From an uncultured bacterium (GTDB taxonomy: Bacteria > Schekmanbacteria > GWA2-38-11 > J061), in contig CAZJVM010000019.1 of NCBI GenBank assembly GCA_964549305.1, positions 1-28,493 on the forward strand: 28,493 bases of DNA. Direction: 5' to 3'. Below, one piece after another: positions 14,737-28,493 of the stretch. The position numbers were made by a program, and so were the translations under genes. The notes beneath the pieces are model-generated. The model made no database searches and was not told the DNA's origin. It saw only the letters and a list, made by a program, of their open reading frames with translations. Position 1 is the stretch's first letter. Each line of letters opens with the position of its first letter.

Positions 14737-14760
14737 TTATATGAGCAAATATTCATATAA
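14737..14760. promoter_or_regulatory. ArsR/SmtB(CzrA)-type operator-like inverted repeat
   Basis: TTATATGA-GCAAATAT-TCATATAA, perfect 8-bp arms, between the divergent feoB and comM genes. Confidence 0.5.
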
Positions 14761-14858
14761 ATTCCTGTTTTTGCCATAACCGGAAAGAGATTTCATCACT
14801 TGACAAAAACACTTATAAATATAAAAATAGCTAAATTAATACAAAAAAGGGGTTAGGT

Positions 14859-16391: not shown

Positions 16392-16440
16392 AGTTTTCAT
16401 TTTTAGAAACTCATAAAAGGTCTGAAAAAAAAGATATAAA

Positions 16441-17328
16441 ATGAGCGGGAACAAGCTGGTAAAACATGATGAAATTAAAAACAGGATTTACACAATTCGC
16501 GGTTTGCAGGTAATGCTGGATGAAGAACTGGCAGAGTTATACGATATAAATACAAAAGTGCTTAACCAAGCTGTCAAAAGGAACAATGAACGATTTCCTG
16601 AAGAATTTATGTTTCAAATTACTGATAATGAATTCAATAGTTTGAGGTCACAAATTGTGACCTCAAACCAGAGAGGTGGAAGACGATATCTGCCTTATGT
16701 TTTTACTGAGCAGGGTGTTGCAATGCTTGCCGGAGTTCTTAAGAGCGAAACGGCAGTAAAAATGAGCATTCAAATTATCAATGCCTTTGTCGCCATGCGC
16801 CGCTTTATTAATGCCAATGCTATGATTTTTCAAAGGTTGGATACCCTTGAAATCAAACAGATTGATACGGATAAAAAAATCAATAACGTGTTAAACGCCA
16901 TTGAGAGCAAAGAAATTAAACCCAAACAGGGTATTTTCTTTGACGGACAGATTTTTGATGCTTATAAGTTTATTTCTGATTTAATCCGATCCGCGCAGAA
17001 ATCAATTATTTTAATCGACAATTATATTGATGATAACGTACTGACTCTTTTTTCAAAACGGCAAAAAGATGTTTCTTTCACGATAATGACAAAAACCATA
17101 TCAAAACAGCTGAAACTTGATGTTAATAAATTCAATAAACAATACTCACCTGTTGTATTAAAGGAATTCAAAAAGTCGCATGATCGTTTTTTGATAATTG
17201 ATGATTATATAGTATATCACTTTGGAGCTTCCCTAAAAGACCTTGGAAAAAAATGGTTTGCATTCTCAAAAATGAAGTTCGAGGCATTGGAAATGCTTAC
17301 CAGATTGGAGAATTTAGAAGAGAAATAA
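16441..17328 (+). CDS. ORF6N (KilA-N-related) DNA-binding domain fused to a PLD-like C-terminal domain
   Basis: IYTIRGLQVMLD..LAELY, LNQAVKRN..RFPEEFMFQ and YVFTEQGVAML (ORF6N); C-terminal IILIDNY, HDRFLIID and HFGASLKDLG. Confidence 0.85.
   Translation: MSGNKLVKHDEIKNRIYTIRGLQVMLDEELAELYDINTKVLNQAVKRNNERFPEEFMFQITDNEFNSLRSQIVTSNQRGGRRYLPYVFTEQGVAMLAGVLKSETAVKMSIQIINAFVAMRRFINANAMIFQRLDTLEIKQIDTDKKINNVLNAIESKEIKPKQGIFFDGQIFDAYKFISDLIRSAQKSIILIDNYIDDNVLTLFSKRQKDVSFTIMTKTISKQLKLDVNKFNKQYSPVVLKEFKKSHDRFLIIDDYIVYHFGASLKDLGKKWFAFSKMKFEALEMLTRLENLEEK
16640..16668. repeat. Perfect 14-1-14 palindrome inside the ORF6N CDS
   Basis: GTTTGAGGTCACAA-A-TTGTGACCTCAAAC, encoding (S)LRSQIVTSN. Confidence 0.97.
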
Positions 17329-17394
17329 CTCGGTCCATAATTAAAAAACAATTTCTCACATAGAGAAAATATAAATCCCATAAATATAAATTAC

Positions 17395-18366
17395 CTAATC
17401 ATCAAGCTTTCTTCTCTTGCCTAAATCTGTTTTTGCAGCCAATTCTTCAGGATAAGGATTGAGAAATCTTTGATTTAAAAGATATTTTTCATCAAAACGA
17501 AGTGCCAGGGAACGAATCAGATTACAGGGGACACTAAGAGATATCTTTTTATTCCTGAATTCTTCAACAATGCTTAAAAATTTTTTTTTCTCTTTATATG
17601 AGAGTTTTTTTGAGACAAAACCAAAAGCGTGAAGAAGAACATTAATCCGGGATTTCCGCGACGGTTTTTTCGATAAAAGTTCATTCATAACATTTTCATA
17701 GTTTAAAATCACTTTTTTAACAGATTTCTTCTCTAAATTTGCAGTAATCAATCCAAGTTTCCGCATATTCACCTCATTATAGGAAAGAAACAGGAATTTA
17801 CATTCATTTTGAAAATTTATTAATGATTTCATAGATAAATGGGATTTAATTCTTCTAAATAAGGCATTTATAAAAATTCTTGTCAAAAAATTTTCTATTA
17901 TCTCGTATTTTTTTAATTTAATCTCATCTTCTACAGGTAGAGTGGGATATGCAGACATAACACATTCAGCAAAAAGGCCTGCGCCTTTGGTTGTGCCGGC
18001 TCTTTTTTTTATACTCTCGTAAATTTTTACATCCCTCAGTCCGCAGGAGGGTGAGCGGCTTTTAAGAATTGCGCCGTCAATCTCTCTTAAATTCGATAAA
18101 AAATTCTTTGAAAATGATACAATTGACCTTGTGTGGTATTTTCCTGTTCCCGGCTGATATATCTTTCTTTTTCCGTTTTGAGATACAATTCGAATCGGTT
18201 CACGGGGCACACCCAATCCTGCTTCCGTCTCAGGGCACAGGGGAATGAAGGTTACATATTTCCTCAGAGATTCGACAAACGGGTCATCTATTTTTTCTCC
18301 GTTATATCTGCAGGCGGCAAATCCGAGGCATTTACTTACAAGAATTATTGGTTTATTATCATTCAT
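17395..18366 (-). CDS. DUF523 (TudS-like Fe-S domain) plus DUF1722/YbgA protein
   Basis: VSKCLG..CRYNG, CPE...GLGVPREPIR, KSRSPSCG and GLFA; C-terminal NVLLHAFGF and YLLNQRFLNPYPEEL. Confidence 0.85.
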   Translation of the reverse strand: MNDNKPIILVSKCLGFAACRYNGEKIDDPFVESLRKYVTFIPLCPETEAGLGVPREPIRIVSQNGKRKIYQPGTGKYHTRSIVSFSKNFLSNLREIDGAILKSRSPSCGLRDVKIYESIKKRAGTTKGAGLFAECVMSAYPTLPVEDEIKLKKYEIIENFLTRIFINALFRRIKSHLSMKSLINFQNECKFLFLSYNEVNMRKLGLITANLEKKSVKKVILNYENVMNELLSKKPSRKSRINVLLHAFGFVSKKLSYKEKKKFLSIVEEFRNKKISLSVPCNLIRSLALRFDEKYLLNQRFLNPYPEELAAKTDLGKRRKLDD

Positions 18367-18380
18367 TATTATATGATATA

Positions 18381-19409
18381 TTATGATAAAATAAGCACAT
18401 TTGCACCGCGGATATCGCCCTTTTTTATCTTTGCAAGAACATCGTTCGCATCTTCGAGAGGAAAAGTACTTATTTCGGGCCTGAGTTTCATCTCATCTGC
18501 AAGAGATAGAAACTCTTTTACATCCCGTCTTGTCACATTTGCAACGCTTTTAATCTCTTTTTCAAGCCAAAGATGTTCGGGATAGTCAATATTTAGCAGA
18601 TTATCCTTATCGTTTTCCTCTTTTCTTATAGCATTTATGACAAGACGTCCTGAAGGACCAAGCTTTTTCATAGATTCTACTACAGGCATCCACGCCGGTG
18701 TCGTGTCGATGACAGCGTCGAGTTTAGTGGAAGGCGCATCTTGAATACCTCCCGTCCACACTGCACCCAATTCGAGGGCAAAACGGCGTTCTTCTTCACT
18801 TCTGGCAAATACATAGACAGGACTTTCGGAATATTTGTGTCTTGCCATCTTCAAAACGAGGTGTCCCGATGCGCCAAAACCTGTCAATCCAAGCTTGTCG
18901 CCGTTTTTTATTCCTGTAAGGGCAAGAGATCTGTAACCGATTGCGCCCGCGCATAGAAGAGGCGCCGCTTCAATATCCGAAAGATATTCAGGTATTTCAT
19001 ATGAAAAATCCGCCCTGACTGTCATATATTCGGCATAACCTCCGTTTACATCCCTCCCCGTAGCTTTGAAATGAGAGCAAAGATTTTCCCTTCCGGTTAT
19101 GCACAACTTGCATTTTCCACAGGCGGAATGTATCCAGGCAACACCTACACGCCTTCCGTACACATTTTTTTCAACATTTTTCCCCGCTTTTTCCACAATC
19201 CCCACAACCTGATGCCCGGGAACCACGGGGAATTCAGGAGGTGGAGTTCTTCCTTCGATTTCATCAATTTCCGTATGGCACACAGCGCAGGCATTCACCT
19301 TTATCAAAATCTCGTCATCCTTTGGTTCGGGAATCGGCAAATCTTTTATTTCAAGAGGGCGTTCATCTTCATTTAGTGATGATATCTTATTTAAAATCAA
19401 TGCTTTCAT
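18381..19409 (-). CDS. Zinc-dependent alcohol dehydrogenase family protein
   Basis: CHTE, PGHQVVG, structural Zn C-x2-C-x2-C-x7-C, GGYAEY, APLLCAG and GFGASG. Confidence 0.92.
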   Translation of the reverse strand: MKALILNKISSLNEDERPLEIKDLPIPEPKDDEILIKVNACAVCHTEIDEIEGRTPPPEFPVVPGHQVVGIVEKAGKNVEKNVYGRRVGVAWIHSACGKCKLCITGRENLCSHFKATGRDVNGGYAEYMTVRADFSYEIPEYLSDIEAAPLLCAGAIGYRSLALTGIKNGDKLGLTGFGASGHLVLKMARHKYSESPVYVFARSEEERRFALELGAVWTGGIQDAPSTKLDAVIDTTPAWMPVVESMKKLGPSGRLVINAIRKEENDKDNLLNIDYPEHLWLEKEIKSVANVTRRDVKEFLSLADEMKLRPEISTFPLEDANDVLAKIKKGDIRGANVLILS

Positions 19410-19430
19410 CGTATATCAGCCCTTTCGCGG

Positions 19431-20471
19431 TTAAAGACTGTGCACCAGATCAACGAGAAATTTAACTTTTTCAGGCGGAGTACCCCTTACAATCCACCCA
19501 CCGAGACTGAAGATGTGGGAAAGCGCATTTTTTCCTTCTTCCACAATCCCGCGCACCCTTTTTTCGATTACATCTTCCGGGGCAAAGAGGCAGTGAGGTT
19601 CGAGATTGCCCTGCACAACCTGATTTTCGCCAAGTCGTTTTATTGCATCGGACATCTTTATAGTCCAGTCAAATCCGACCACATCGATATCAAGCTCATT
19701 TAACGGCGCGGACATAAAACTCGTGCCGTCTGAGGCGAAAAAAACTGCCGCACCTGCGTTCTTTATAGATTTTACAAGGCGCGTCGCATAGGGATAGCAG
19801 AATTCAAGGTAATTATGAGGTGACATCGACGAAGGTGAGAAAAGGTCCAAGACCATAATGATGTCAGCGCCCGCCTCAACCTGCGCGGGAATGAATTTCT
19901 CATACATTGAGGTTATTTTATCCAAAAGCTTGTGAAAAAGGGCGGGTTTTTCATAAATCATCCGTTTCAGTCTGTTAAAAGGCGTAACTCCCGAAGGAAA
20001 ACCGCCTTCCACAAGGAATGCCGATGTGCTAAGCGGCGCGCCAACCCATCCGATCAGGGGGACTTTTCCCTGTAGCGCCTTTTTCCCCAGGCGCATTCCC
20101 TCAAGCCATACCTTCATTGCCTCTTCAGGTTCGGGGATAGAGAACTTTTCTATATCCGATTCGCTCCTTATGGGATTTGAAACAACTCTCGAAGGGTCTT
20201 TCAGTCCAAAATTAATCTTTGCGCCGAATGCCTCGAGAAGAATGGAGAGGTCTGACATATGAATTGCCGCATCAAATCCAAAATCCTCGATGGGTGCAAC
20301 GGTGCATTCAGCGCTCAACTCCGGATTTTTACAGATTCCTTCAAATCCATACTTCTTTTCAAGCTCGAGAAAACGCCGTGTTATTAGCATCTGAATTTCA
20401 ATGACAATGGGCATTTTCGAAGGACACCTGCCCTGTGCCGCCTCCATATAAATCATTTTATCCTGCGACAT
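19431..20471 (-). CDS. Uroporphyrinogen-decarboxylase (HemE/URO-D) family protein, divergent
   Basis: FDAAIHMSDL, VPLIGWVGAP, AQVEAGAD, VGFDW, VQGNLEP and HIFSLG...TPPEKV follow the HemE scaffold. The RQAGR motif is absent. Confidence 0.8.
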   Translation of the reverse strand: MSQDKMIYMEAAQGRCPSKMPIVIEIQMLITRRFLELEKKYGFEGICKNPELSAECTVAPIEDFGFDAAIHMSDLSILLEAFGAKINFGLKDPSRVVSNPIRSESDIEKFSIPEPEEAMKVWLEGMRLGKKALQGKVPLIGWVGAPLSTSAFLVEGGFPSGVTPFNRLKRMIYEKPALFHKLLDKITSMYEKFIPAQVEAGADIIMVLDLFSPSSMSPHNYLEFCYPYATRLVKSIKNAGAAVFFASDGTSFMSAPLNELDIDVVGFDWTIKMSDAIKRLGENQVVQGNLEPHCLFAPEDVIEKRVRGIVEEGKNALSHIFSLGGWIVRGTPPEKVKFLVDLVHSL

Positions 20472-20553
20472 TTTAACTCCCTCCCTTTTTTTGAGAAAGG
20501 ATAAAATAAATTCCCTGTCAATGCAAGATTCAAAAGGTGGCGTGAATTAAAAA

Positions 20554-20569
20554 TGTTCCACGTGGAACA
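20554..20569. promoter_or_regulatory. parS site 1
   Basis: Perfect TGTTCCACGTGGAACA, upstream of parAB. Confidence 0.95.
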
Positions 20570-20778
20570 TTTCACCCTGTTAAAAAGATGTTTAAAAGTT
20601 TATATTTTTATAACCGAAATCTTTATCTATTTGATTTTAAAGGTTTTTTATTGCCAAAACCCTTTTTTTCTTTATTAACAGGTTATCAACACTAAAAATA
20701 TCTGAAACAAAAAAAAGACCTTTGCTTTTTTATCTCCTTTGTGCTTATCTTGTGAAGGAGCTTTTAAAATATTTTAAA

Positions 20779-20794
20779 TGTTCCACGTGGAACA
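20779..20794. promoter_or_regulatory. parS site 2
   Basis: Perfect TGTTCCACGTGGAACA, about 85 bp upstream of parA. Confidence 0.95.
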
Positions 20795-20878
20795 TTTTTC
20801 AAGCTTGTATTTTTCTGTTGCCCATATTTTTTGAGTTCTGTAGTATGGGCTTGGTTTTTAATTTCCTTTGACTCATAG

Positions 20879-21670
20879 ATGGCTTATCAAAAAATGGGAA
20901 AGGTTATTGCCATAGCAAACCAGAAGGGAGGAGTGGGTAAAACCACGACCTCAATCAACCTTTCTGCCTGTCTCGGTAAAAAAGGGATAAGCACCCTTCT
21001 AATAGACCTCGACCCTCAGGGAAACGCAACAAGCGGACTTGGACTGAATCACGCAGGCACCACTAAATCCATTTATCGCGCTATTCTCGGCAGGAAAACA
21101 ATATCGGAAGTGCTCGCTGACAGCGTTTTTCCTCAACTTAAGGTAATTCCCTCCACAGACGAGCTTTTCGGCGCGGAGGTAGAACTTATGGATGTTTCAC
21201 CGCGCGAATCCCTTCTGAAAAGCTGTCTTGGCGACATAATCGACGATTTCCAGTATATCATCATAGACTGCCCACCGTCACTTGGCGTTTTAACCGTAAA
21301 TGCCCTTTGCGCGGCGGATTCCGTCCTAATTCCTCTTCAGTGTGAATACTACGCCCTCGAAGGCGTTGCTCAAATTCTCACCACAATCGGCAAAATAAAG
21401 GAAGCGCTCAATCCCGGACTCTACATTGAAGGAATTCTCCTTACAATGCAGGATTTAAGGACAAATCTTTCCGGCGAAGTATGTGAAAATGTGAGGGAAC
21501 AATTTGGGGATAAAGTGTTTAAAACGGTAATTCCGAGAAATGTACGCCTCTCTGAAGCGCCGAGTTATGGACAACCTATTATTCTTTATGACCCGAATTC
21601 AAAGGGCGCGGAAACCTATAAACAACTTACAGAGGAAATTATAAACAATGAAAAGGAAATCGCTGGGTAA
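20879..21670 (+). CDS. parA: Chromosome partitioning ATPase ParA/Soj
   Basis: ANQKGGVGKTTT, DLDPQGNAT, IIDCPPSLG, QCEYYALEG and IPRNVRLSEAPSYG. Start could be ATG 20894. Confidence 0.97.
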   Translation: MAYQKMGKVIAIANQKGGVGKTTTSINLSACLGKKGISTLLIDLDPQGNATSGLGLNHAGTTKSIYRAILGRKTISEVLADSVFPQLKVIPSTDELFGAEVELMDVSPRESLLKSCLGDIIDDFQYIIIDCPPSLGVLTVNALCAADSVLIPLQCEYYALEGVAQILTTIGKIKEALNPGLYIEGILLTMQDLRTNLSGEVCENVREQFGDKVFKTVIPRNVRLSEAPSYGQPIILYDPNSKGAETYKQLTEEIINNEKEIAG

Positions 21671-22508
21671 GGGACTGGACGCGTTAATATCGCCAAAAGG
21701 CAAAATAGACGGTGATAAAAAAGATTATGTTTCCAATATTGAAGTAAAGGATATAAAACCGGGACCTCATCAGCCAAGAAAAAGCTTTGACGACGACAAG
21801 ATGAAAGAGCTCATATCTTCAATCAGGACAAAAGGCGTCATTCAGCCGATTCTCGTGAAGAAAACAGGGAAACACTTTACCATTATCGCCGGTGAAAGAA
21901 GGTGGAGAGCGGCTAAAAAGGCAGATCTCAAGAAAATCCCCGCAATTATAAAGAATATTTCAAATAAAGAGCTTGAGGAGATAGCGCTGATTGAAAACAT
22001 TCAGCGCGAGGATTTAAATCCCATCGAGGAAGCACAGGCATACAAACACCTTATGGAAGACCACAACCTGAACCAGAATGAGCTTGCATCGTTAGTTGGA
22101 AAGGAAAGAAGCACCATAACAAACTACCTAAGATTACTGAAACTTCCAAAAAAGGTGAGAAACTATCTACTTGAAAACAAAATATCGATGGGGCATGCAC
22201 GCGTTTTATGCGGTGTCGACGATGAAGCAAAACAGACTGACCTTGCGGAAATGATTATCAGAGACAATCTGTCCGTACGACAAACCGAAAAAATTGCTTC
22301 TAAAGGAATTAAAGTCGAAAAAAAGAAAAAAGAACACAAAGGCAAACAGGTTTCTCCGGAAATTCTTTCCCTCGAGGAAAAGTTGAGAAGCGCTCTTGCA
22401 ACAAAGGTAAAGCTTTCTCATAACGAAAAGACAAACCACGGAAAGATTACCATCGAATATTACTCCCTTGATGAATTGGACAGGATGCTGGACATACTAA
22501 CTGAATAA
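21648..22508 (+). CDS. parB: Chromosome partitioning CTPase ParB/Spo0J
   Basis: LGKGLDALI, QPRK.F, GVIQPI, IIAGERRWRA, ENIQREDLNPIEEA, HTH GKERSTITNYLRLL and GHAR. Confidence 0.97.
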   Translation: MKRKSLGKGLDALISPKGKIDGDKKDYVSNIEVKDIKPGPHQPRKSFDDDKMKELISSIRTKGVIQPILVKKTGKHFTIIAGERRWRAAKKADLKKIPAIIKNISNKELEEIALIENIQREDLNPIEEAQAYKHLMEDHNLNQNELASLVGKERSTITNYLRLLKLPKKVRNYLLENKISMGHARVLCGVDDEAKQTDLAEMIIRDNLSVRQTEKIASKGIKVEKKKKEHKGKQVSPEILSLEEKLRSALATKVKLSHNEKTNHGKITIEYYSLDELDRMLDILTE

Positions 22509-22558
22509 CCAATGCTGTAGCTCTTATGCCCATACTGGCTATATAGTTGATATAACAG

Positions 22559-23956
22559 CTAAATATTTTCCATAAGTTTTTTATGGAGATTCCCGAAATC
22601 GCCGTTGCTCATTACGATGACAATATCTCCGGTTTTTACAATTTCGCAAATATACTTCACGATTGAATCTGCATTTTCAATAAAATGCGCGTCTTTCCCC
22701 CTGTTTTGAAGCGATTTTACAACATTCTGTGACGAAAAACGGGTTTTTTCATCAAGCACGTCCTTGTTGAACGGTTCGGCAAGTATTGAAATATCCGCTG
22801 AATCAAATGCTTCCGAATATTCTTTCTCAAAGATATTTCTCCTGCTCGAGTTTGACCTTGGTTCAAAAACGGCAATTATTCGCTTCCCCGTAAATCTTGC
22901 CCTGAAACCCTCGAGAGTTTTTCTCACAGCAGTTGGGTGATGGGCAAAATCATCATATATTTCAATATCATTTTTCACTCCGAACAACTCCTGCCTCCTT
23001 TTTACTCCGCTGAAACCGGAAACTTTTTCACAGGCATTCTTCAAATCCAAACCCATTAACCTAATTACAGCAATCGCACCCGTAAGGTTCGCGTAATTAT
23101 GTTTTCCCATAAGTTTTGTATTGAATGCAATTTCACCCTCTTCTTTCATAACGACAGAAACTCTTCCCTTTTTCTCATCAATATCCTTTATAATCCAGTC
23201 ATTTGAATCATCATAACCGTATGTAATTACCGGGCATTTTGCCCCTGAAAGCACTCTTTTTACATTTTCGCTGTCACCGAATGCGGCGATCGCGCCATTT
23301 GCCGGAATCAAATCGATAAGTTTTGAAAAATTGGAAAGAATATGCTCCAGGTCGCGGTAAATGTCCGCGTGGTCAAATTCGATATCGTTTAAGAGGAGAT
23401 AGTCAGGATAATAATGCAGAAACTTCGGACCCTTGTCGAAAAATGCCGTATCATACTCGTCACCTTCGCTGACAAAGCAGTTACCACTTCCGATTCTGTA
23501 ATTTTTCCCGAAATCTACGGGCACTCCTCCTATCATAAATCCCGCGTCCTCCCCCAACTCATTCAAAAGATATGCAAGCGCTGAAGATGTGGTGGTCTTT
23601 CCGTGAGTGCCTGCGGCGACTACCGACTTTTTTCCCTTTATGAAATTATTCCACAGCGTTTCAGGAAAGGAAAAGCAGGGAATTTCCCGCCTCTTTAACT
23701 CAACTGCATCGGGATTGTCACGGGAAACGGCATTGCCGATTACGGCAAAGTCAACTTCTTCGGGGATATTCTCTTTCGAATAACCGATTTTAACAGGAAT
23801 CGACAACTCTCTGATAAGCTCGCTCGTAGGATAATAAAGCCCCTTGTCAGAACCGGAAACGTCAAATCCCGATGTCTTGAGCATTCCCGCAAGAGCGCTC
23901 ATTCCCGTACCGCCTATGGCAACAACATAAACCGATTTCCCCTTTTTCAGCGTCAA
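22559..23956 (-). CDS. mpl: Murein peptide ligase Mpl (MurC-like)
   Basis: IGGTGMSALA, GNAVSRDNP, AGTHGKTTTS, EGDEYDTAFFDKGPKFLHY, IEFDHADIY, DDFAHHPTA, FEPRSNS and MSNGDFG. TTG start overlaps the upstream TGA. Confidence 0.9.
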   Translation of the reverse strand: MTLKKGKSVYVVAIGGTGMSALAGMLKTSGFDVSGSDKGLYYPTSELIRELSIPVKIGYSKENIPEEVDFAVIGNAVSRDNPDAVELKRREIPCFSFPETLWNNFIKGKKSVVAAGTHGKTTTSSALAYLLNELGEDAGFMIGGVPVDFGKNYRIGSGNCFVSEGDEYDTAFFDKGPKFLHYYPDYLLLNDIEFDHADIYRDLEHILSNFSKLIDLIPANGAIAAFGDSENVKRVLSGAKCPVITYGYDDSNDWIIKDIDEKKGRVSVVMKEEGEIAFNTKLMGKHNYANLTGAIAVIRLMGLDLKNACEKVSGFSGVKRRQELFGVKNDIEIYDDFAHHPTAVRKTLEGFRARFTGKRIIAVFEPRSNSSRRNIFEKEYSEAFDSADISILAEPFNKDVLDEKTRFSSQNVVKSLQNRGKDAHFIENADSIVKYICEIVKTGDIVIVMSNGDFGNLHKKLMENI

Positions 23957-25128
23957 CCCTCCGTCCTAAGGGGTTTTGGCGGATAAATTTTTGAGGCGCC
24001 CAGCACATTCATTACGGCATCGTGAATAACAGGGCGCGCCTTTACGAATTTCCTGTTAGCCCTGTCAGGATGCACTCTGTTTGAAAGAAGGGCAACAACA
24101 ACCTCCTTTTTCGTATCAATCCAGAGAGATGAGCCCGTATATCCAGGATGCCCTATGGACTCCTTGGAGAAGAAATGTCCCGACGTGGAAAATCCCTCTG
24201 AAGGGGTGTCCCACCCTATTGCCCACGATGAGCTTCTGTCAATGAGCTGGCGCTTTGAAAACTCCCTTACAATTCTCTGATGAAGAAAATCGCTCCTTCC
24301 GTGAAAGCAGTCAAGGATTACCATGCCGAATTTATAGACATCCGCCGCAGTGGAAAAAAGCCCGGCGTGTGCCGACACACCGCCCATGGCGTAACAGTTA
24401 TCATCGTGGACTTCTCCGCGAATGAGGCAGTTCCGCCATTTGGAATCCTCCGTAGGCGCGATTCTTTCAAGCCGGTCACCGGTCAATGTTTTTTCTTTAT
24501 CTTCAAGGTTGATAAAAAAAGTGTCCTCAAGCCCCAGGGGCGAAAATATCTCCCTTCGGCAAAATTCATCGAAGGCCTCGCCGGTTATCATCTCTATTAT
24601 TTCGCCTAAAATTATAAATCCTATGTCGCTGTACTTCGTAACGGAAAAGTCTTTATTTACAAGCTCCTGCGAGTTTGCAATGGAATAGACCAGATTCTTT
24701 CCCCGCTTATTCGCGAGCAACCGGGTCCCGCCCACTGTTTCCTTCCTTCTTATCTCCTCAAAAAAGGGATACCAGTCGGCAAGTCCCGACACATGGCAGA
24801 GAAGATGCTTCAGTCTGACCGCGCTTTTCTCCTCTTCACGAAACTCATCGATAAACTCAGAAACTTTCATTTCGATATTGAGTTTTCCTTTTTGCACAAG
24901 AAGCATTACCGCCGTTGCAGTTGCCATCACTTTTGTCACTGAGGCAATATCGTAGATTGTGTTGACGCTGTTTGGCAACTCCTCGGGAACAAGCTGTTTT
25001 TTCCCGTATGATTCCAGCAGAAAATTTTCGTCCTTCCTGCCTGCGGCAACTACCACGCCCGGCATTGTCTTATCATTCAAAATCGATTGCACGGTTTCCC
25101 CGAGCATTTCAAGATTAAGATTTGTCAA
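23953..25128 (-). CDS. Serine hydrolase, beta-lactamase/PBP-like family (AmiE/YbbE-like)
   Basis: YDIASVTK (SxxK), YSD, GEVHDDN...GGVSAHAGLFS, GHPGYTGS and LSNRVHP. No signal peptide. Confidence 0.85.
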   Translation of the reverse strand: MTNLNLEMLGETVQSILNDKTMPGVVVAAGRKDENFLLESYGKKQLVPEELPNSVNTIYDIASVTKVMATATAVMLLVQKGKLNIEMKVSEFIDEFREEEKSAVRLKHLLCHVSGLADWYPFFEEIRRKETVGGTRLLANKRGKNLVYSIANSQELVNKDFSVTKYSDIGFIILGEIIEMITGEAFDEFCRREIFSPLGLEDTFFINLEDKEKTLTGDRLERIAPTEDSKWRNCLIRGEVHDDNCYAMGGVSAHAGLFSTAADVYKFGMVILDCFHGRSDFLHQRIVREFSKRQLIDRSSSWAIGWDTPSEGFSTSGHFFSKESIGHPGYTGSSLWIDTKKEVVVALLSNRVHPDRANRKFVKARPVIHDAVMNVLGASKIYPPKPLRTEG

Positions 25129-26059
25129 TTACAGATTCTCCTTCTATTTCAATGTTTCCCTTGTCGCCGTCCATTGCAACGATTCCCCCCACGGGCAGTG
25201 TGAGCGACCCTTCGCCGTGCCCCGTGGGAAAGTTGCAGCAGACCGGATAATCGTATTCTTTTGTAAACTCCGCTACAATTTCTTCAACAAGACTGTTCCA
25301 CTCCTCTTTTTTCCGTCCCAGTCCGTTCACTATCTGGCATATTACAAGGCCGGAAAGTTTAGCGAGTTTGCCTTTCTCCTTCAACTGCCAGAGCATTCTT
25401 TCTACCCTGTAGGGCGCTTCGGCAATATCCTCGAGAAAAAGAATGTTCCCCCGCGTTTCTATTTCCCACTTGGTACCTATTACGGAATTCATAACAGAAA
25501 GGCATCCGCCCGAAAGCGTGCTCCGCCCCTTTCCGCCCTTCAGAAATTTGATTCCGTCCTTCTTTCCCAGCTTAAAAGATTTCCCCTTAGCGGCAAGGTC
25601 GAAAAAGAACCGAAACTCTTCTTCATAATTTTTAACAGTGCTGTTTCCCGCGGACATAGGCCCGTAGAAGGAAACCATCGCGCATTTTTGCAGAAGCGCG
25701 GCATTTATAAGGGTTATGTCGCTCGAACCGCAGAAAACCTTGGGGTTTTTTCCAATGGTTTTAAAATCAAGAAAAGGGAGAATTCTGCAGGCGCCGAAAC
25801 CGCCGCGCGCAGCAATTATTCCTTTTACTTCTTTATCCCTGAACGCGTTGTTTATAATCTCGGCGCGAAGTTTGTCGCTTCCGGCAAAATATCTTTTTTT
25901 CTCGAAGATGCGCTCATCGTAACAGGTTTCAAAACCGCACTCTTCGATAATCTCGATACCACGGAAAAAATGCTTCTCTTTAAAAATTCCCGAAGGCGCC
26001 ACAATGCAAAGAAGGTCTCCCTTTTTAAGCCCTGCCGGTTTTATAATTTTATTATGCAT
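25115..26059 (-). CDS. ldcA: LD-carboxypeptidase (peptidase S66, LdcA-like)
   Basis: IVAPS, ARGGFG, GSSDIT (Ser), LFLED (Glu) and TGH (His) give the S66 triad. Confidence 0.88.
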   Translation of the reverse strand: MHNKIIKPAGLKKGDLLCIVAPSGIFKEKHFFRGIEIIEECGFETCYDERIFEKKRYFAGSDKLRAEIINNAFRDKEVKGIIAARGGFGACRILPFLDFKTIGKNPKVFCGSSDITLINAALLQKCAMVSFYGPMSAGNSTVKNYEEEFRFFFDLAAKGKSFKLGKKDGIKFLKGGKGRSTLSGGCLSVMNSVIGTKWEIETRGNILFLEDIAEAPYRVERMLWQLKEKGKLAKLSGLVICQIVNGLGRKKEEWNSLVEEIVAEFTKEYDYPVCCNFPTGHGEGSLTLPVGGIVAMDGDKGNIEIEGESVIDKS

Positions 26060-26223
26060 AAATCCTTACGGCAATTAAGCCTGTGGCATATTGCGGAATT
26101 GAGTAAATTAGAAATTCTAAACACCCCGGGTTTAATGACAATAAATTCAAATCAAATTATAATTACAACTGCGATTTATAGAAAGAAAATATATACTATT
26201 ATCTTACCAAAGTCTATTTCGCC

Positions 26224-26706
26224 ATGAAGAAAAAAAAAGAGATAAACTACGACGAGAAACGCCTCTTTGATTATGCCTGCTGGTATATTACGAGATACCC
26301 GTCTTCGCGCCTCAGGATGAAGGAAAAACTTTCCGAAAAAAACGAGGACCTCTCTGTTGTTGAAAAAGTGCTGATGCGCCTGGAATCCTTTGGATATATC
26401 GACGACAGAGCAGTGACGGAATCGGTGGTGAGAAGTTTCTGCAGGCGCGGTTACGGAAAAAGCAGGATTATTCTCAAACTTCGTGAGAAAAAAATCACCG
26501 ACAGAAAAATGATAGATGATGTACTTCAAAGCGAAGGCGCTGAAGAAAAGGAAGCGGAAGGTTTGAAAAAAATCATAGAAAAACGGTATGAAAAATACGA
26601 CACAGGAACACCGCCGGGCAGAAAGAGATTCATCGACTATCTTCTGCGAAGAGGTTTCAGGATGGAATCAATATTAAATGAACTTAGGACACGTGGAATT
26701 ATCTGA
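26224..26706 (+). CDS. recX: Regulatory protein RecX
   Basis: Three-helix repeats: RLESFGYIDD, GYGKSRIILKLREKKI and YLLRRGF. Confidence 0.8.
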   Translation: MKKKKEINYDEKRLFDYACWYITRYPSSRLRMKEKLSEKNEDLSVVEKVLMRLESFGYIDDRAVTESVVRSFCRRGYGKSRIILKLREKKITDRKMIDDVLQSEGAEEKEAEGLKKIIEKRYEKYDTGTPPGRKRFIDYLLRRGFRMESILNELRTRGII

Positions 26707-26766
26707 AAAATGAGCTCTTTTATAGCTCCCAAAATGTATTTTAGAAGTATTCCTCACATCCACGTG

Positions 26767-26835
26767 TTCTGTGTATTCCGTGGTAAAAAATTAAAATCAA
26801 AAACATTAACCACGAAACACAGTGACTGCACAGAA
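26767..26835. repeat. Degenerate inverted repeat (REP-like or terminator-like) downstream of recX
   Basis: TTCTGTGTATTCCGTGGT ... ACCACGAAACACAGTGACTGCACAGAA. The arms are partly complementary. Confidence 0.35.
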
Positions 26836-26971
26836 AAAAGAATATTGTGGTGGTGACATTTATTTCAATAAACAACCTCGATTTTCATAAATTTAATGAC
26901 TTCAATAAAATCAAAATGTTAAGCTTTCTAAAAAGCCGTTTTTAATATTTCCTGTAGAGCAGCGACCGGAT

Positions 26972-27748
26972 ATGGATAATAAAAATAATCAAACTCTCTA
27001 TTCTGAAATAATCAACAAAGAAATTTTGGACCAACTGCCTCGGGTGCTGGGCGAGGAAAAATCCCGAAGGATTCTTGAACGGGGAACGCTCACAGAAGAG
27101 GAGGCAAAAGAGATTGCCGCAACGCCCGAAGCCCCATCTGACCTTCTCGCCCTCATTGCAAAGACGACGGACTACGAGGACCTTTACACAATAAGGCGCG
27201 CGCTCATATCAAATCCCAAAACTCCGGTACACGTTTCAAAAAGCCTCATCGCATATCTTAACAAACACGACCTGATACAACTCCTCGACTCGAAAAACGT
27301 TCCCTTCTCCCTCAAAAACATCGTTCTTGAATATTTAAGGAATAAACTTCCGGAAATTCCCGCAGGAGAAAAAATATCTCTTGCAAGAAAGGCGCCGCGA
27401 AATCTTCTGCGTCTTCTTCTTTATGATGAAGACATAATGGTTTTTGAGGCATCCTTATGGAATCCCAAGCTAACGGAAGGCGACCTTCTTGTGCTTCTCC
27501 AGAAAAAAAGGGAGCATTCGCGTCTTCTTTCCGTTATTGCTTCACATCCTAAATGGAAAAACCGTTATCCCGTAAAACTTGCCCTTGTAAGAAATCCTTC
27601 AACTCCCGTCGATGTTTCACTGAGGTTTATTCCCCAGCTTCTTCTTCAGGACCTCGTTTCCCTTAACAATATTCCGGCCCTCAACAGAAGAATTCGTGAA
27701 TCCGTCAAAGAATTCATCGCCTTAAAAAAGCACAAAAAAAATTATTGA
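26972..27748 (+). CDS. Conserved hypothetical protein with LRV/HEAT-like helical repeats
   Basis: Recurring ALISNPKTP / SLWNPKLT / IASHPKW / ALVRNPSTP units. Confidence 0.6.
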   Translation: MDNKNNQTLYSEIINKEILDQLPRVLGEEKSRRILERGTLTEEEAKEIAATPEAPSDLLALIAKTTDYEDLYTIRRALISNPKTPVHVSKSLIAYLNKHDLIQLLDSKNVPFSLKNIVLEYLRNKLPEIPAGEKISLARKAPRNLLRLLLYDEDIMVFEASLWNPKLTEGDLLVLLQKKREHSRLLSVIASHPKWKNRYPVKLALVRNPSTPVDVSLRFIPQLLLQDLVSLNNIPALNRRIRESVKEFIALKKHKKNY

Positions 27749-27844
27749 GAACATGAAAATTTTATAGGCTTCTTGCCTGCTGTGTTAAAAATAATCTTCA
27801 ATGATAAAAATATTATTTTGTACAGATATAAGGAAAAATAACAT

Positions 27845-28492
27845 ATGAAACCCGAAGGATCAAAAGGCGAAATCATTATCTATAAACCGCAAAAGGGAGA
27901 AGGCCATATCGAAGTACATCTTGAAGATGAAACCGTATGGTTGACACAGGCACAGATGGTAAAACTGTTTCAAAAAACAAAGCAAAATATAAGTCTTCAT
28001 ATTCGCAATATATTCAAAGAAGGTGAATTAAATAAGAAATCAGTTGTCAAGGATTCCTTGACAACTGCCAAAGATGGAAAAAGATATAAAACACAATATT
28101 ACAACCTGGATGTTATTATTTCCGTAGGTTATCGTGTCAGGTCAAAACGGGGCACCCAATTTCGTATCTGGGCAACTACCGTGTTAAAAGACAACCTTAT
28201 CAATGGGTATTCCATCAACGAGAAGCGGCTAAAAGAACAAAACATCCGGTTGCAGGATCTTCAAAAAACCGTGAACCTGATGGGACGCCTTCTCGATGTC
28301 AAGGAATTGGATCAAAACGAAACGGCTGGACTGTTTAAAGTAATAACCGATTACTCATATGCTCTTACTGTTCTTGACCGCTATGACCGGTCAAAGCTTA
28401 AAATTCAAAAAACTACCTGCAAAAAAGAATTTGTTCTGACATATGAAAAAGCATGTTCGGTAATTTCACTACTCGGCAAAGAACTCAAAAAT
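27845..28492 (+). CDS. RhuM-family protein, probably a RhuM-Fic/Doc fusion; truncated at the window end and absent from the ORF track
   Basis: Manual translation: MKPEGSKGEIIIY...ETVWLTQAQMVKLFQKTKQNISLHIRNIFKEGEL...YNLDVIISVGYRVRSKRGTQFRIWAT...DYSYALTVLDRYD. AGGA RBS upstream and no stop before the window end. Confidence 0.85.
   Translation, partial: MKPEGSKGEIIIYKPQKGEGHIEVHLEDETVWLTQAQMVKLFQKTKQNISLHIRNIFKEGELNKKSVVKDSLTTAKDGKRYKTQYYNLDVIISVGYRVRSKRGTQFRIWATTVLKDNLINGYSINEKRLKEQNIRLQDLQKTVNLMGRLLDVKELDQNETAGLFKVITDYSYALTVLDRYDRSKLKIQKTTCKKEFVLTYEKACSVISLLGKELKN
28041..28067. repeat. Perfect 13-1-13 palindrome inside the RhuM CDS
   Basis: CAGTTGTCAAGGA-T-TCCTTGACAACTG, encoding SVVKDSLTT(A). 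Confidence 0.97.
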
Positions 28493-28493
28493 C

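Follow-up and report, generated by a model that had tools for sequence, protein, structure and literature searches.

Why would a gene for a putative DNA-binding protein carry a long perfect palindrome within the codons of its own binding domain? This question is raised by two genes in the window, by which we mean the whole stretch analyzed here. It consists of the initial 28,493 nt of a contig of 45,658 nt (CAZJVM010000019.1) from an uncultured bacterium (Schekmanbacteria lineage). One gene encodes an ORF6N-domain protein. The other belongs to the Virulence_RhuM family, is fused to a Fic domain and is interrupted by a 100-N scaffold gap, at which the window has its 3' end. A sequence-only reading of the window had suggested that its two longest perfect palindromes, each about 200 nt after a start codon, are operators that these one-gene modules carry within their own coding sequence (CDS). 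By comparing sequences across the two families, we came to favor this reading with a probability of about 0.6: the palindrome is probably an operator bound by the N-terminal domain encoded in the same gene.

Two perfect palindromes within coding sequences

The two palindromes, P1 and P2 (Table 1), are situated as the sequence-only reading had described. P1 (16640-16668) starts 199 nt after the ATG of the ORF6N gene (16441-17328) and P2 (28041-28067) starts 196 nt after the ATG of the RhuM gene at 27845. They are the longest perfect palindromes of the window, and the next longest are parS-like sites with 11+11 nt. The whole genome (2,943,108 nt) contains 14 perfect palindromes with an arm of at least 12 nt and a loop of at most 4 nt, compared with about 1.3 that we estimate for random sequence of like composition. 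Nine of the 14 are terminator-like, with an A-run and a T-run, and one lies between two genes. Another falls in the first ~35 codons of a TTG-start frame, ahead of a TorD-like domain, and is probably upstream of the true start. The sole other long palindrome well within an open reading frame (ORF) of the genome (G000:C2:66556-66583, locus L524; arm 12, loop 4) occupies codons ~47-56 of a 180-aa ORF with a sub-threshold GAF match (E 0.007). P1 and P2 are the only palindromes of this length in the genome that lie within Pfam-supported domains. A chance origin of P1 and P2 is excluded.

The arm of P1 has no other copy in the genome at up to one mismatch. The arm of P2 has no exact other copy, and five scattered single half-site look-alikes were found at up to one mismatch. 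Since the arms do not recur as full copies, the palindromes are not generic inserted repeats of the repetitive extragenic palindromic (REP) or miniature inverted-repeat transposable element (MITE) kind, an outcome that the sequence-only reading had left to be checked. Neither palindrome qualifies as an intrinsic terminator, as no T-run follows P1 or P2, unlike the nine A/T-flanked palindromes of the genome.

Conservation and covariation in the ORF6N and RhuM families

Homologues from relatives' genomes and from genome, metagenome and viral collections provided 181 ORF6N and 185 RhuM segments spanning the site. Removal of segments at least 90% identical around the site left 123 and 132 non-redundant ones, from many bacterial phyla, archaea and viral contigs. 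A perfect arm of at least 10 nt was present at the site in 64 of the 123 ORF6N and 84 of the 132 RhuM segments. The same arm length was reached in 0.18% (ORF6N) and 1.9% (RhuM) of synonymous-codon shuffles, and elsewhere in the same segment in 1/123 and 3/132. When imperfect palindromes were included, 120/123 ORF6N and 132/132 RhuM segments had at least 10 of 14 symmetric pairs. The center falls on a fixed codon position, which is position 1 in ORF6N (117/121) and position 3 in RhuM (129/132). Among the relatives' genomes, 14 of 27 ORF6N matches and 17 of 26 RhuM matches had a perfect arm of at least 10 nt at the equivalent codons, and its sequence was often unlike that in the window. Family-level enrichment, proposed as a check with the sequence-only reading, was found: the palindrome stands at the same codons across both families, and it also occurs in Bro-N, KilA-N and DUF1016_N (see below).

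Covariation was counted on ungapped 35-nt alignments of 131 RhuM and 121 ORF6N homologues. The alignment cells were paired in 93.0% (RhuM) and 90.7% (ORF6N), and 12 of 13 and 11 of 14 pairs, respectively, had changed on both sides. Double-change cells numbered 395 in RhuM, compared with 101.5 ± 12 in shuffles, and 247 in ORF6N, compared with 64.6. The covariation score was 0.662 for RhuM (shuffles, 0.219) and 0.423 for ORF6N (shuffles, 0.141); with the partners slid by 1-3 columns it was 0.05-0.13 and 0.07-0.09. We counted 38 arm variants in RhuM and 41 in ORF6N, which bears out the earlier suggestion that specificity could change by coordinated mutation of both arms. These results leave us nearly certain that a palindrome of the P1/P2 type is a selected DNA-level element.

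The outer arm of RhuM occurs in two forms, CAGTT...AACTG, encoding S-V...T-A, and CAACT...AGTTG, encoding S-T...V-Q. The swap from Val/Thr to Thr/Val is forced by base complementarity, so that the DNA constraint dictates a coupled pair of residues. A constraint on DNA can thus determine the amino-acid sequence of part of a domain, and signals of conservation or coevolution in these families need to be read with this in mind.

In four ORF6N loci of other genomes (L004, L017, L190 and L194), the segment that encodes the palindrome is part of an in-frame tandem duplicate, e.g. LRSQFVTLKVDINQEDLKSQIVTSS. These genes therefore contain two in-frame sites about 50 nt apart.

Link between the palindrome and a predicted recognition helix

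AlphaFold2 models of the two N-terminal domains (predicted local distance difference test scores of 83 and 77) have a beta-beta-alpha-alpha...beta-beta-alpha layout. Each protein column was scored for its association with the arm sequence, with 100 shuffles as the reference. In ORF6N, the highest z-scores belonged to residues 39, 40 and 43 of the predicted recognition helix (9.7, 11.8 and 15.1), followed by residues 79-83 of a loop or wing segment (5-11). Residues 77-78, directly after the palindrome, reached 3.6-4.0, and all remaining non-palindrome columns stayed at or below 3.8. In RhuM, z was 12.5-22.7 for residues 44-48, 50 and 51 and at most 8.1 for the other non-palindrome columns, including the very variable residues 53-65 between the helix and the palindrome. 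No signal was found in the columns that separate helix from palindrome, so the association is not caused by the transfer of both on one DNA segment. The covarying residues of ORF6N follow an i, i+1, i+4 pattern; the RhuM equivalents are residues 47, 48 and 51, though the raw signal spans 44-51.

The association could be read as a code. In ORF6N, the inner bases CA occur with Gln43 (64 sequences), CG with Glu43 together with Arg40 (26), GC with Arg43 (11), TC with Lys or Arg43 (10), and TG or TT with Leu43 (5). This code, which agrees with the usual amino-acid/base preferences, fits 116 of 119 sequences and leaves three exceptions. The outer bases follow the 79-83 segment, TGAGG going with GGRRY, TAAGG with GHRKY and GGAxx with MGLRR, and the outer variants combine freely with the inner ones, of which they are independent. 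For RhuM, inner GCA is found with Ser47, Thr/Val48 and Arg/Lys51; AAG with Gln47, Asn48 and Leu51; CGG with Glu51; GAG with Asp47, Asn48 and Leu51; and TCC with Ala48 and Lys51. Both genes of the window conform. The ORF6N gene has K-V-Q with inner CA, plus GGRRY, and the RhuM gene has KTKQNISL with a GTCAAG arm, as do 28/28 sequences carrying that arm. Among 27 ORF6N genes from held-out genomes, 26 had at least 10 of 12 symmetric pairs and 24 obeyed the code, compared with about 36% that we estimate for chance. Specific covariation of the palindrome with the recognition helix of the predicted helix-turn-helix supports the suggestion of an operator carried by the gene itself.

Relatedness was controlled with disjoint pairs of close sequences, whose identity over the remainder of the domain was 70% or more. 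These matched pairs were used because the FastTree tree of the remaining columns was too poorly resolved. Where the inner bases of a close pair differed, the helix also differed in 28/30 ORF6N and 25/25 RhuM pairs. Where they were the same, the helix differed in 1/27 ORF6N and 14/38 RhuM pairs. Silent changes in RhuM could also be followed. The peptide SVVKESLTTA encoded with GTC..TTG is accompanied by the helix KQN.SL in 28/28 sequences, and encoded with GTT..TTA by VPN.SM or KNN.SM. The GTT/ATT group is not a clade, with identities of 0.61 within and 0.59 between groups. Among the RhuM sequences with Val..Leu (33 C·G, 4 T·A and 2 A·G), the silent pair is associated only with residues 51, 47 and 55 (z 6.8, 6.3 and 5.7; all others at most 2.5), and these three residues share one helix face.

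A model for the self-encoded site

From the observed conservation, covariation, base identity, helix link and successful prediction, we infer physical binding, a dimer geometry and a roadblock with autoregulation. The palindrome would be a double-stranded DNA site for the winged-helix-type N-terminal domain, which would probably bind it as a dimer. The predicted recognition helix is encoded 20-30 codons upstream of the site, and because of this short distance reader and site would form a single block of about 100 bp that moves along with the gene or the domain. The covarying inner bases lie 3-6 bp on either side of the center, and the two sets are thus about 8-10 bp apart, like neighboring turns of the major groove. 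In a symmetric dimer, two recognition helices may contact these inner bases, and the loop or wing that follows would contact the outer ones, at 10-11 bp. Protein bound about 200 nt into the frame could block elongating RNA polymerase as a roadblock. With such a roadblock, the protein would hold down the expression of its own, potentially toxic effector (Fic; possibly a nuclease) by negative autoregulation that does not depend on the promoter, and specificity would diversify by paired changes in both arms and the helix. Autoregulation as the main role of the site is a tentative proposal, to which we give somewhat less than even odds.

Several observations weigh against this model. The fold assignment is weak: the best Foldseek match was a Ski/Dachshund domain (E 0.1), followed by MarR-type winged helices (E 0.3-1), and a sequence search of solved structures returned no relevant relative. 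Tree-based independent contrasts found 1-4 supported pairs, all in the same direction, with p of at least 0.125 and hence no power. The chemistry of the RhuM code also fits contacts within the protein, with a strand Arg facing a helix Glu and a strand Glu facing a helix Lys. The synonymous test that separates DNA readout from such contacts draws on 4-6 sequences, and a contact within the protein is a real alternative for the helix-site link of RhuM. The ORF6N gene of the window has only 49 nt upstream, and no second site was found there. Intergenic sites match the residue-43 code of the adjacent gene in 8 of 20 cases (one of them a doubtful non-family site), which is about the chance level, so that promoter-proximal copies give no support to simple self-repression. 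Finally, the arms are perfect over 13-15 bp and more symmetric than most known operators. This excess of symmetry hints at an added constraint, e.g. cruciform formation or homogenization of the arms by template switching.

Copies outside the coding sequence and cross-regulation

The collected loci (995 kb) contain 167 distinct palindromes with an arm of at least 11 nt, 132 of which are in frames of at least 100 aa. Stand-alone palindromes of the ORF6N type were found in 9/123 loci at 235-310 nt before the in-gene site, i.e. about 35-110 nt upstream of the ATG. Further ORF6N-type copies lie farther upstream in some loci and just past the stop codon in three. RhuM-type copies were found upstream in 3/132 loci. 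Because their flanks have no family coding context, we regard these copies as discrete elements of about 25-29 nt and not as decayed pieces of genes, and they support a cis-acting site. The possibility that the extra sites are decayed gene fragments was rejected, since the flanks contain stops and lack family motifs, with a faint remnant in L190 only. A second promoter operator of identical sequence was also rejected: an extra copy of the same 10-nt arm exists in only 4/99 ORF6N and 0/85 RhuM loci. The claim that each gene carries its own operator stands in part. The palindrome covaries with the recognition helix, and the site is not strictly confined to the CDS, given the stand-alone copies that adjoin some genes and their code match of 8/20.

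Arrays of two or three family-type palindromes were seen upstream of the gene in several loci, L148, L190 and L319 among them. In L319, two RhuM-type sites with different inner sequences are 48 nt apart before the ATG.

The extra intergenic sites may serve other paralogues. This leads to the alternative that survives best, in which the domain does bind the site, and does so for cross-regulation or immunity-like exclusion among paralogues or for tethering of the effector to its own locus. In about 12 of the 20 intergenic copies, the specificity differs from that of the adjacent gene, and several paralogues are present in many genomes (e.g. G109, with 13 ORF6N matches, and G095 and G282, with tandem clusters). 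RhuM paralogues within one genome differed in their inner triplets in 11/11 pairs from 7 genomes. In a published survey (PMC9881135), DUF1016 and RhuM proteins are among the enriched neighbors of genes targeted by inversion, for the most part at Type I restriction-modification loci. However, the in-gene site has the specificity of its own gene in 116/119 sequences and in 24/27 held-out ones, as self-recognition predicts, and the source genome, with one ORF6N and one RhuM copy, offers no partner. We consider this alternative unlikely, though less so than those that follow.

A folded nucleic acid or a site read as double-stranded DNA

The element might also act by pairing alone, either as a DNA cruciform or hairpin (e.g. 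a supercoiling-sensitive block to transcription) or as an mRNA hairpin that affects translation or decay. Several properties fit such a role. The compensatory covariation is strong, complementarity is perfect over 13-15 bp, beyond the need of most operators, and the center of the palindrome is A/T-rich. Predicted single-strand stems are stable, at -12 to -14 kcal/mol with z about -7 (as single-stranded DNA, P1 -13.8 kcal/mol, z -7.3; P2 -12.3 kcal/mol, z -6.6). The stand-alone copies upstream or just downstream of genes could lie in untranslated regions.

The mismatches inside the stems do not have the pattern of a sense-strand RNA helix, since there is no G·U tolerance and no strand bias (G·T versus A·C, 18 versus 27 in ORF6N and 20 versus 15 in RhuM). 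In Rfam, no family reached its gathering score (IS102 was listed at E 0.33, with 26.9 bits against 46), and no T-run follows either palindrome. Four stem positions of RhuM pair a wobble base with a wobble base, and any of the four complementary pairs would preserve a hairpin there. Base identity is nevertheless fixed and does not drift: Ser TCA with Thr ACT in 85/85, Ala GCA with Phe TTT in 29/29, Lys AAG with Ser TCC in 25/27 and Arg CGG with Phe TTC in 19/20. Pairing alone also leaves unexplained why the palindrome tracks three residues of the recognition helix, even across a silent change. The mismatch pattern, the fixed wobble bases and the asymmetry of the protein models point to double-stranded DNA that is read by its sequence, beyond pairing alone, and we judge a purely folded element to be rather unlikely.

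Symmetry of the protein, such as a beta-hairpin with cross-strand pairs, was tried as an explanation and rejected. In the AlphaFold2 models, the palindrome center falls mid-strand in RhuM and on a helix end plus a low-confidence loop in ORF6N. Because there is no symmetric structure at this place, protein symmetry cannot explain the palindrome, and the wobble-wobble pairs are constrained too.

A mutational by-product or a recombination site

Once a protein segment tolerant of change contained a near-palindrome, template switching in replication could repeatedly copy one arm onto the other, and changes in the helix would compensate within the protein for the amino-acid changes thereby imposed on the encoded strand. 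The strict Watson-Crick pairing on both strands fits such a by-product. Within the domain, variability is highest in the peptide encoded by the palindrome, part of which is a low-confidence loop in ORF6N. The tandem duplications in the four loci mentioned above and the contact-like Arg-Glu and Glu-Lys pairs of RhuM strand and helix fit as well. This explanation is nevertheless improbable. Only these two genes of the source genome carry such palindromes, and the trait has been maintained in bacteria, archaea and viral contigs alike. Base identity is fixed at the wobble positions, even a silent base-pair change goes with the helix, and perfect stand-alone copies persist without a coding context. 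In ORF6N, moreover, Glu73 goes with Leu43 and Gly73 with Lys/Arg43, the reverse of what contacts would require.

Least probable of all is a site of recombination or mobility, i.e. a joint for swapping N-terminal and effector modules or the attachment site of a single-gene cassette: both genes are insertions relative to the sister species, 62-nt direct repeats bracket the RhuM/Fic gene and the palindrome reads alike on both strands and in frame, but mid-gene integration would split the gene, no recombinase is a conserved neighbor in the window (Pfam), and the recombination joint was rejected for lack of a breakpoint pile-up at the palindrome, as a maximum chi-square scan of 429 ORF6N and 733 RhuM sequence pairs placed 0/5 strong ORF6N and 6/41 strong RhuM breakpoints within 30 nt of it.

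Palindromes in other domain families

In Bro-N, a palindrome is located at nt ~131-170 of the domain, with an arm of at least 10 nt in 9/29 matches and a maximum of 17 nt. KilA-N had arms of 18 and 13 nt, in 2/8 matches. In DUF1016_N, the palindrome lies just upstream of the LSWSH motif, with an arm of at least 8 nt in 23/47 and at least 10 nt in 9/47; the 47 scored are those of 53 distinct sequences in which the motif was found, in a search from a ten-sequence alignment subset. The density of palindromes with an arm of at least 10 nt was 1.10 per kb within the domain match and 0.095 per kb in the flanks for Bro-N, 0.65 and 0 for KilA-N, and 0.77 and 0.074 for DUF1016_N, about ten times higher within the matches. 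Some of those in the flanks (several in number) are elements of this kind that belong to a neighboring gene from another such family. The helix-site association was scored in ORF6N and RhuM; the samples of the other three families are small.

ORF6N, Bro-N and DUF1016 genes are often neighbors. Genome G109 has 12 DUF1016_N matches in addition to its ORF6N matches. Tandem clusters consist of five ORF6N genes within 8 kb in G282 (G282:C1) and of four or five in G095:C3. In two DUF1016_N loci (L453 and L472), a long palindrome (arm 11) lies at nt 140-167 of the domain, a second position that precedes the usual one by about 100 nt.

The sequence-only reading had regarded the design as convergent. 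The N-domains of ORF6N and RhuM have their secondary-structure elements in the same order and give a weak alignment (hhalign E 0.0034, probability 9.5%), which makes convergence between these two doubtful; the palindrome trait may have been inherited. For DUF1016_N, it may be convergent.

We give even odds to the broader proposal that at least five families (ORF6N, RhuM-N, Bro-N, KilA-N and DUF1016_N) in bacteria, archaea and viral contigs are self-referential specificity cassettes, in which the helix and its site are encoded together within about 100 bp and diversify together. If this is true, every one-gene module that spreads horizontally would arrive with a private operator. Control of solitary and potentially toxic genes (Fic and nuclease fusions, phage regulators of the Bro/KilA type) would then be explained wherever they insert, as the control site would be inside the gene. 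There would be a simple sequence rule for the binding sites of common uncharacterized domains in restriction-modification and defence islands. Thousands of naturally matched pairs of protein and site would already be present in public databases, and a recognition code could be read from them directly. Such a natural helix-site data set could be used to learn how proteins recognize DNA and to design orthogonal repressor-operator pairs.

The two genes and their insertion sites

The coordinates of the features in the window are listed in Table 1.

Table 1. Palindromes, predicted reading elements, genes and flanking repeat in the window.
Feature	Position	Strand	Description
Palindrome P1	16640-16653/16655-16668		Perfect 14-nt arms, 1-nt center; codons 67-76 (SLRSQIVTSN) of the ORF6N gene
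Palindrome P2	28041-28053/28055-28067		Perfect 13-nt arms, 1-nt center; codons 66-75 (SVVKDSLTTA) of the RhuM gene
ORF6N predicted recognition helix	16552..16581	+	Codons 38-47 (AlphaFold2 H38-47); K39, V40 and Q43 covary with the palindrome
ORF6N loop or wing segment	16675..16689	+	Codons 79-83 (GGRRY); covaries with outer palindrome bases
RhuM turn and predicted recognition helix	27974..28018	+	Codons 44-58 (AlphaFold2 H46-58); residues 44-48, 50 and 51 (KTKQN-SL) covary
ORF6N-domain gene, 295 aa	16441..17328	+	ORF and Pfam; N-terminal winged-helix-like DNA-binding domain (predicted), C-terminal domain of uncertain kind
RhuM-family/Fic gene, 5' part	27845..28492	+	Cut by the 100-N gap; resumes beyond it and stops at C19:28845
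62-nt direct repeat, upstream copy	27766..27827	+	Second copy at C19:28850-28910, beyond the window; 57/62 identical (local alignment)

The ORF6N gene has a Pfam match to ORF6N (PF10543; E 1.5e-36, 125 bits against a cut-off of 27.8) at residues 14-99, covering the full profile (1-86). The match of the RhuM gene to Virulence_RhuM (PF13310; E 1.3e-24, 87.4 bits against 33.7) covers only positions 1-88 of the 252 in the profile because the scaffold gap cuts the gene. In the sequence-only reading, one protein was assigned a PLD-like nuclease and the other a probable Fic effector. The latter is upheld by a Fic/DOC match (PF02661; E 7.4e-10, 40 bits against 24, profile 62-93) in the piece after the gap, where the sequence HSFVDGNKRIAA was compared with the canonical Fic catalytic-loop motif. 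The nuclease is not: in Pfam, the PLDc_2 match (PF13091) of the C-terminal half of the ORF6N gene is below threshold (E 0.077, 13.3 bits against 27), and the stretch H-D-R-F-L-I-I-D is no more than a resemblance to the PLD motif HxK(x)4D.

Both genes are AT-rich and stand-alone, as had been noted. Their GC contents are 0.343 (ORF6N) and 0.379/0.389 (RhuM), compared with 0.43 for the window and 0.414 for the genome, which holds a single copy of each. The syntenic sites are empty in a sister species of the same genus, G001 (loci L432 and L436; window 16392-17394 and 27749-28493). In G001, only 60 nt separate the yifB-like gene from the desulfurase gene, compared with 1079 nt, including the ORF6N gene, in the window, and proC directly follows the gene that precedes RhuM in the window. 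At an identity of 64-75%, the divergence between the window and G001 is too high for the exact insertion boundaries to be placed. The 62-nt repeats bracket the RhuM/Fic gene, 17 nt before its ATG and 4 nt after its stop, and look like a target duplication of intergenic DNA upstream of proC upon insertion of the gene.

Two other repeats were seen in the window. Two identical 22-nt perfect palindromes (11+11) at 20551-20572 and 20776-20797 (AAATGTTCCAC/GTGGAACATTT) are intergenic and upstream of parA/parB (20879-22508); they are parS-like sites, in agreement with the sequence-only reading. The region between the divergent feoB-like and Mg-chelatase-like (yifB-type) genes contains an imperfect inverted repeat of 28 nt at 14749-14828, with 71% complementarity and a spacer of 24 nt. 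The source lineage is sparsely sampled, with only 5 genomes of its phylum in the genome collection used.

Comparison with known systems

In the full-text literature, with subscription journals and supplements outside its scope, our search found no description of palindromes inside ORF6N, RhuM, Bro-N, KilA-N or DUF1016 genes, and none of a site that is built into the DNA of a binding domain at a fixed codon position family-wide and co-diversifies with the recognition helix. Operators within a regulator's own transcription unit are known already, as is feedback through palindromes on toxin-antitoxin and restriction-modification modules.

The pac site lies inside terS, and the pT181 origin lies inside repC. 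As in the cases described here, protein and DNA site are inherited as a unit and the pair has specificity variants. The difference is that the proteins acting there, in packaging or in the initiation of replication, are nucleases or nickases and not a winged-helix domain, and we know of no family-wide palindrome at a fixed codon position in either. A parS palindrome is located inside the spo0J gene, so that ParB/Spo0J also has a palindromic binding site within the gene of the DNA-binding protein itself. In contrast to P1 and P2, parS is one near-invariant 16-bp segregation sequence that occurs at several chromosomal places and is not known to covary with the protein.

The regulators of restriction-modification systems known as C proteins bind C-boxes, which are promoter operators. 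Paired palindromes are reported at the promoter of the toxin-antitoxin module YefM-YoeB (PMC1802561), and RptR, which is linked to Type I restriction-modification islands, has TAGCTA repeats (PMC12255303). The three systems resemble the proposed model in placing a potentially harmful mobile module under tight negative feedback via short palindromes. They differ in that their sites are at promoters and the regulator or antitoxin is separate, whereas here the site is in the CDS of the regulator domain of a one-gene module.

Another precedent is purR O2, an operator within the regulator's own transcription unit. The operator lacI O3, likewise inside the coding region of its regulator or at the end of it, is reported to mediate autoregulation by a roadblock (PMC3711431). 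In both, a dimeric helix-turn-helix repressor occupies a dyad site past its own promoter and lowers its own synthesis by blocking elongation, which is what the model would require of P1 and P2. Both are single-gene cases, however, in which the site is not tied to the DNA of the binding domain and is not known to be conserved in the family or to co-diversify with the helix. They are also metabolic regulators, whereas the N-terminal modules described here are fused to Fic or nuclease-type effectors.

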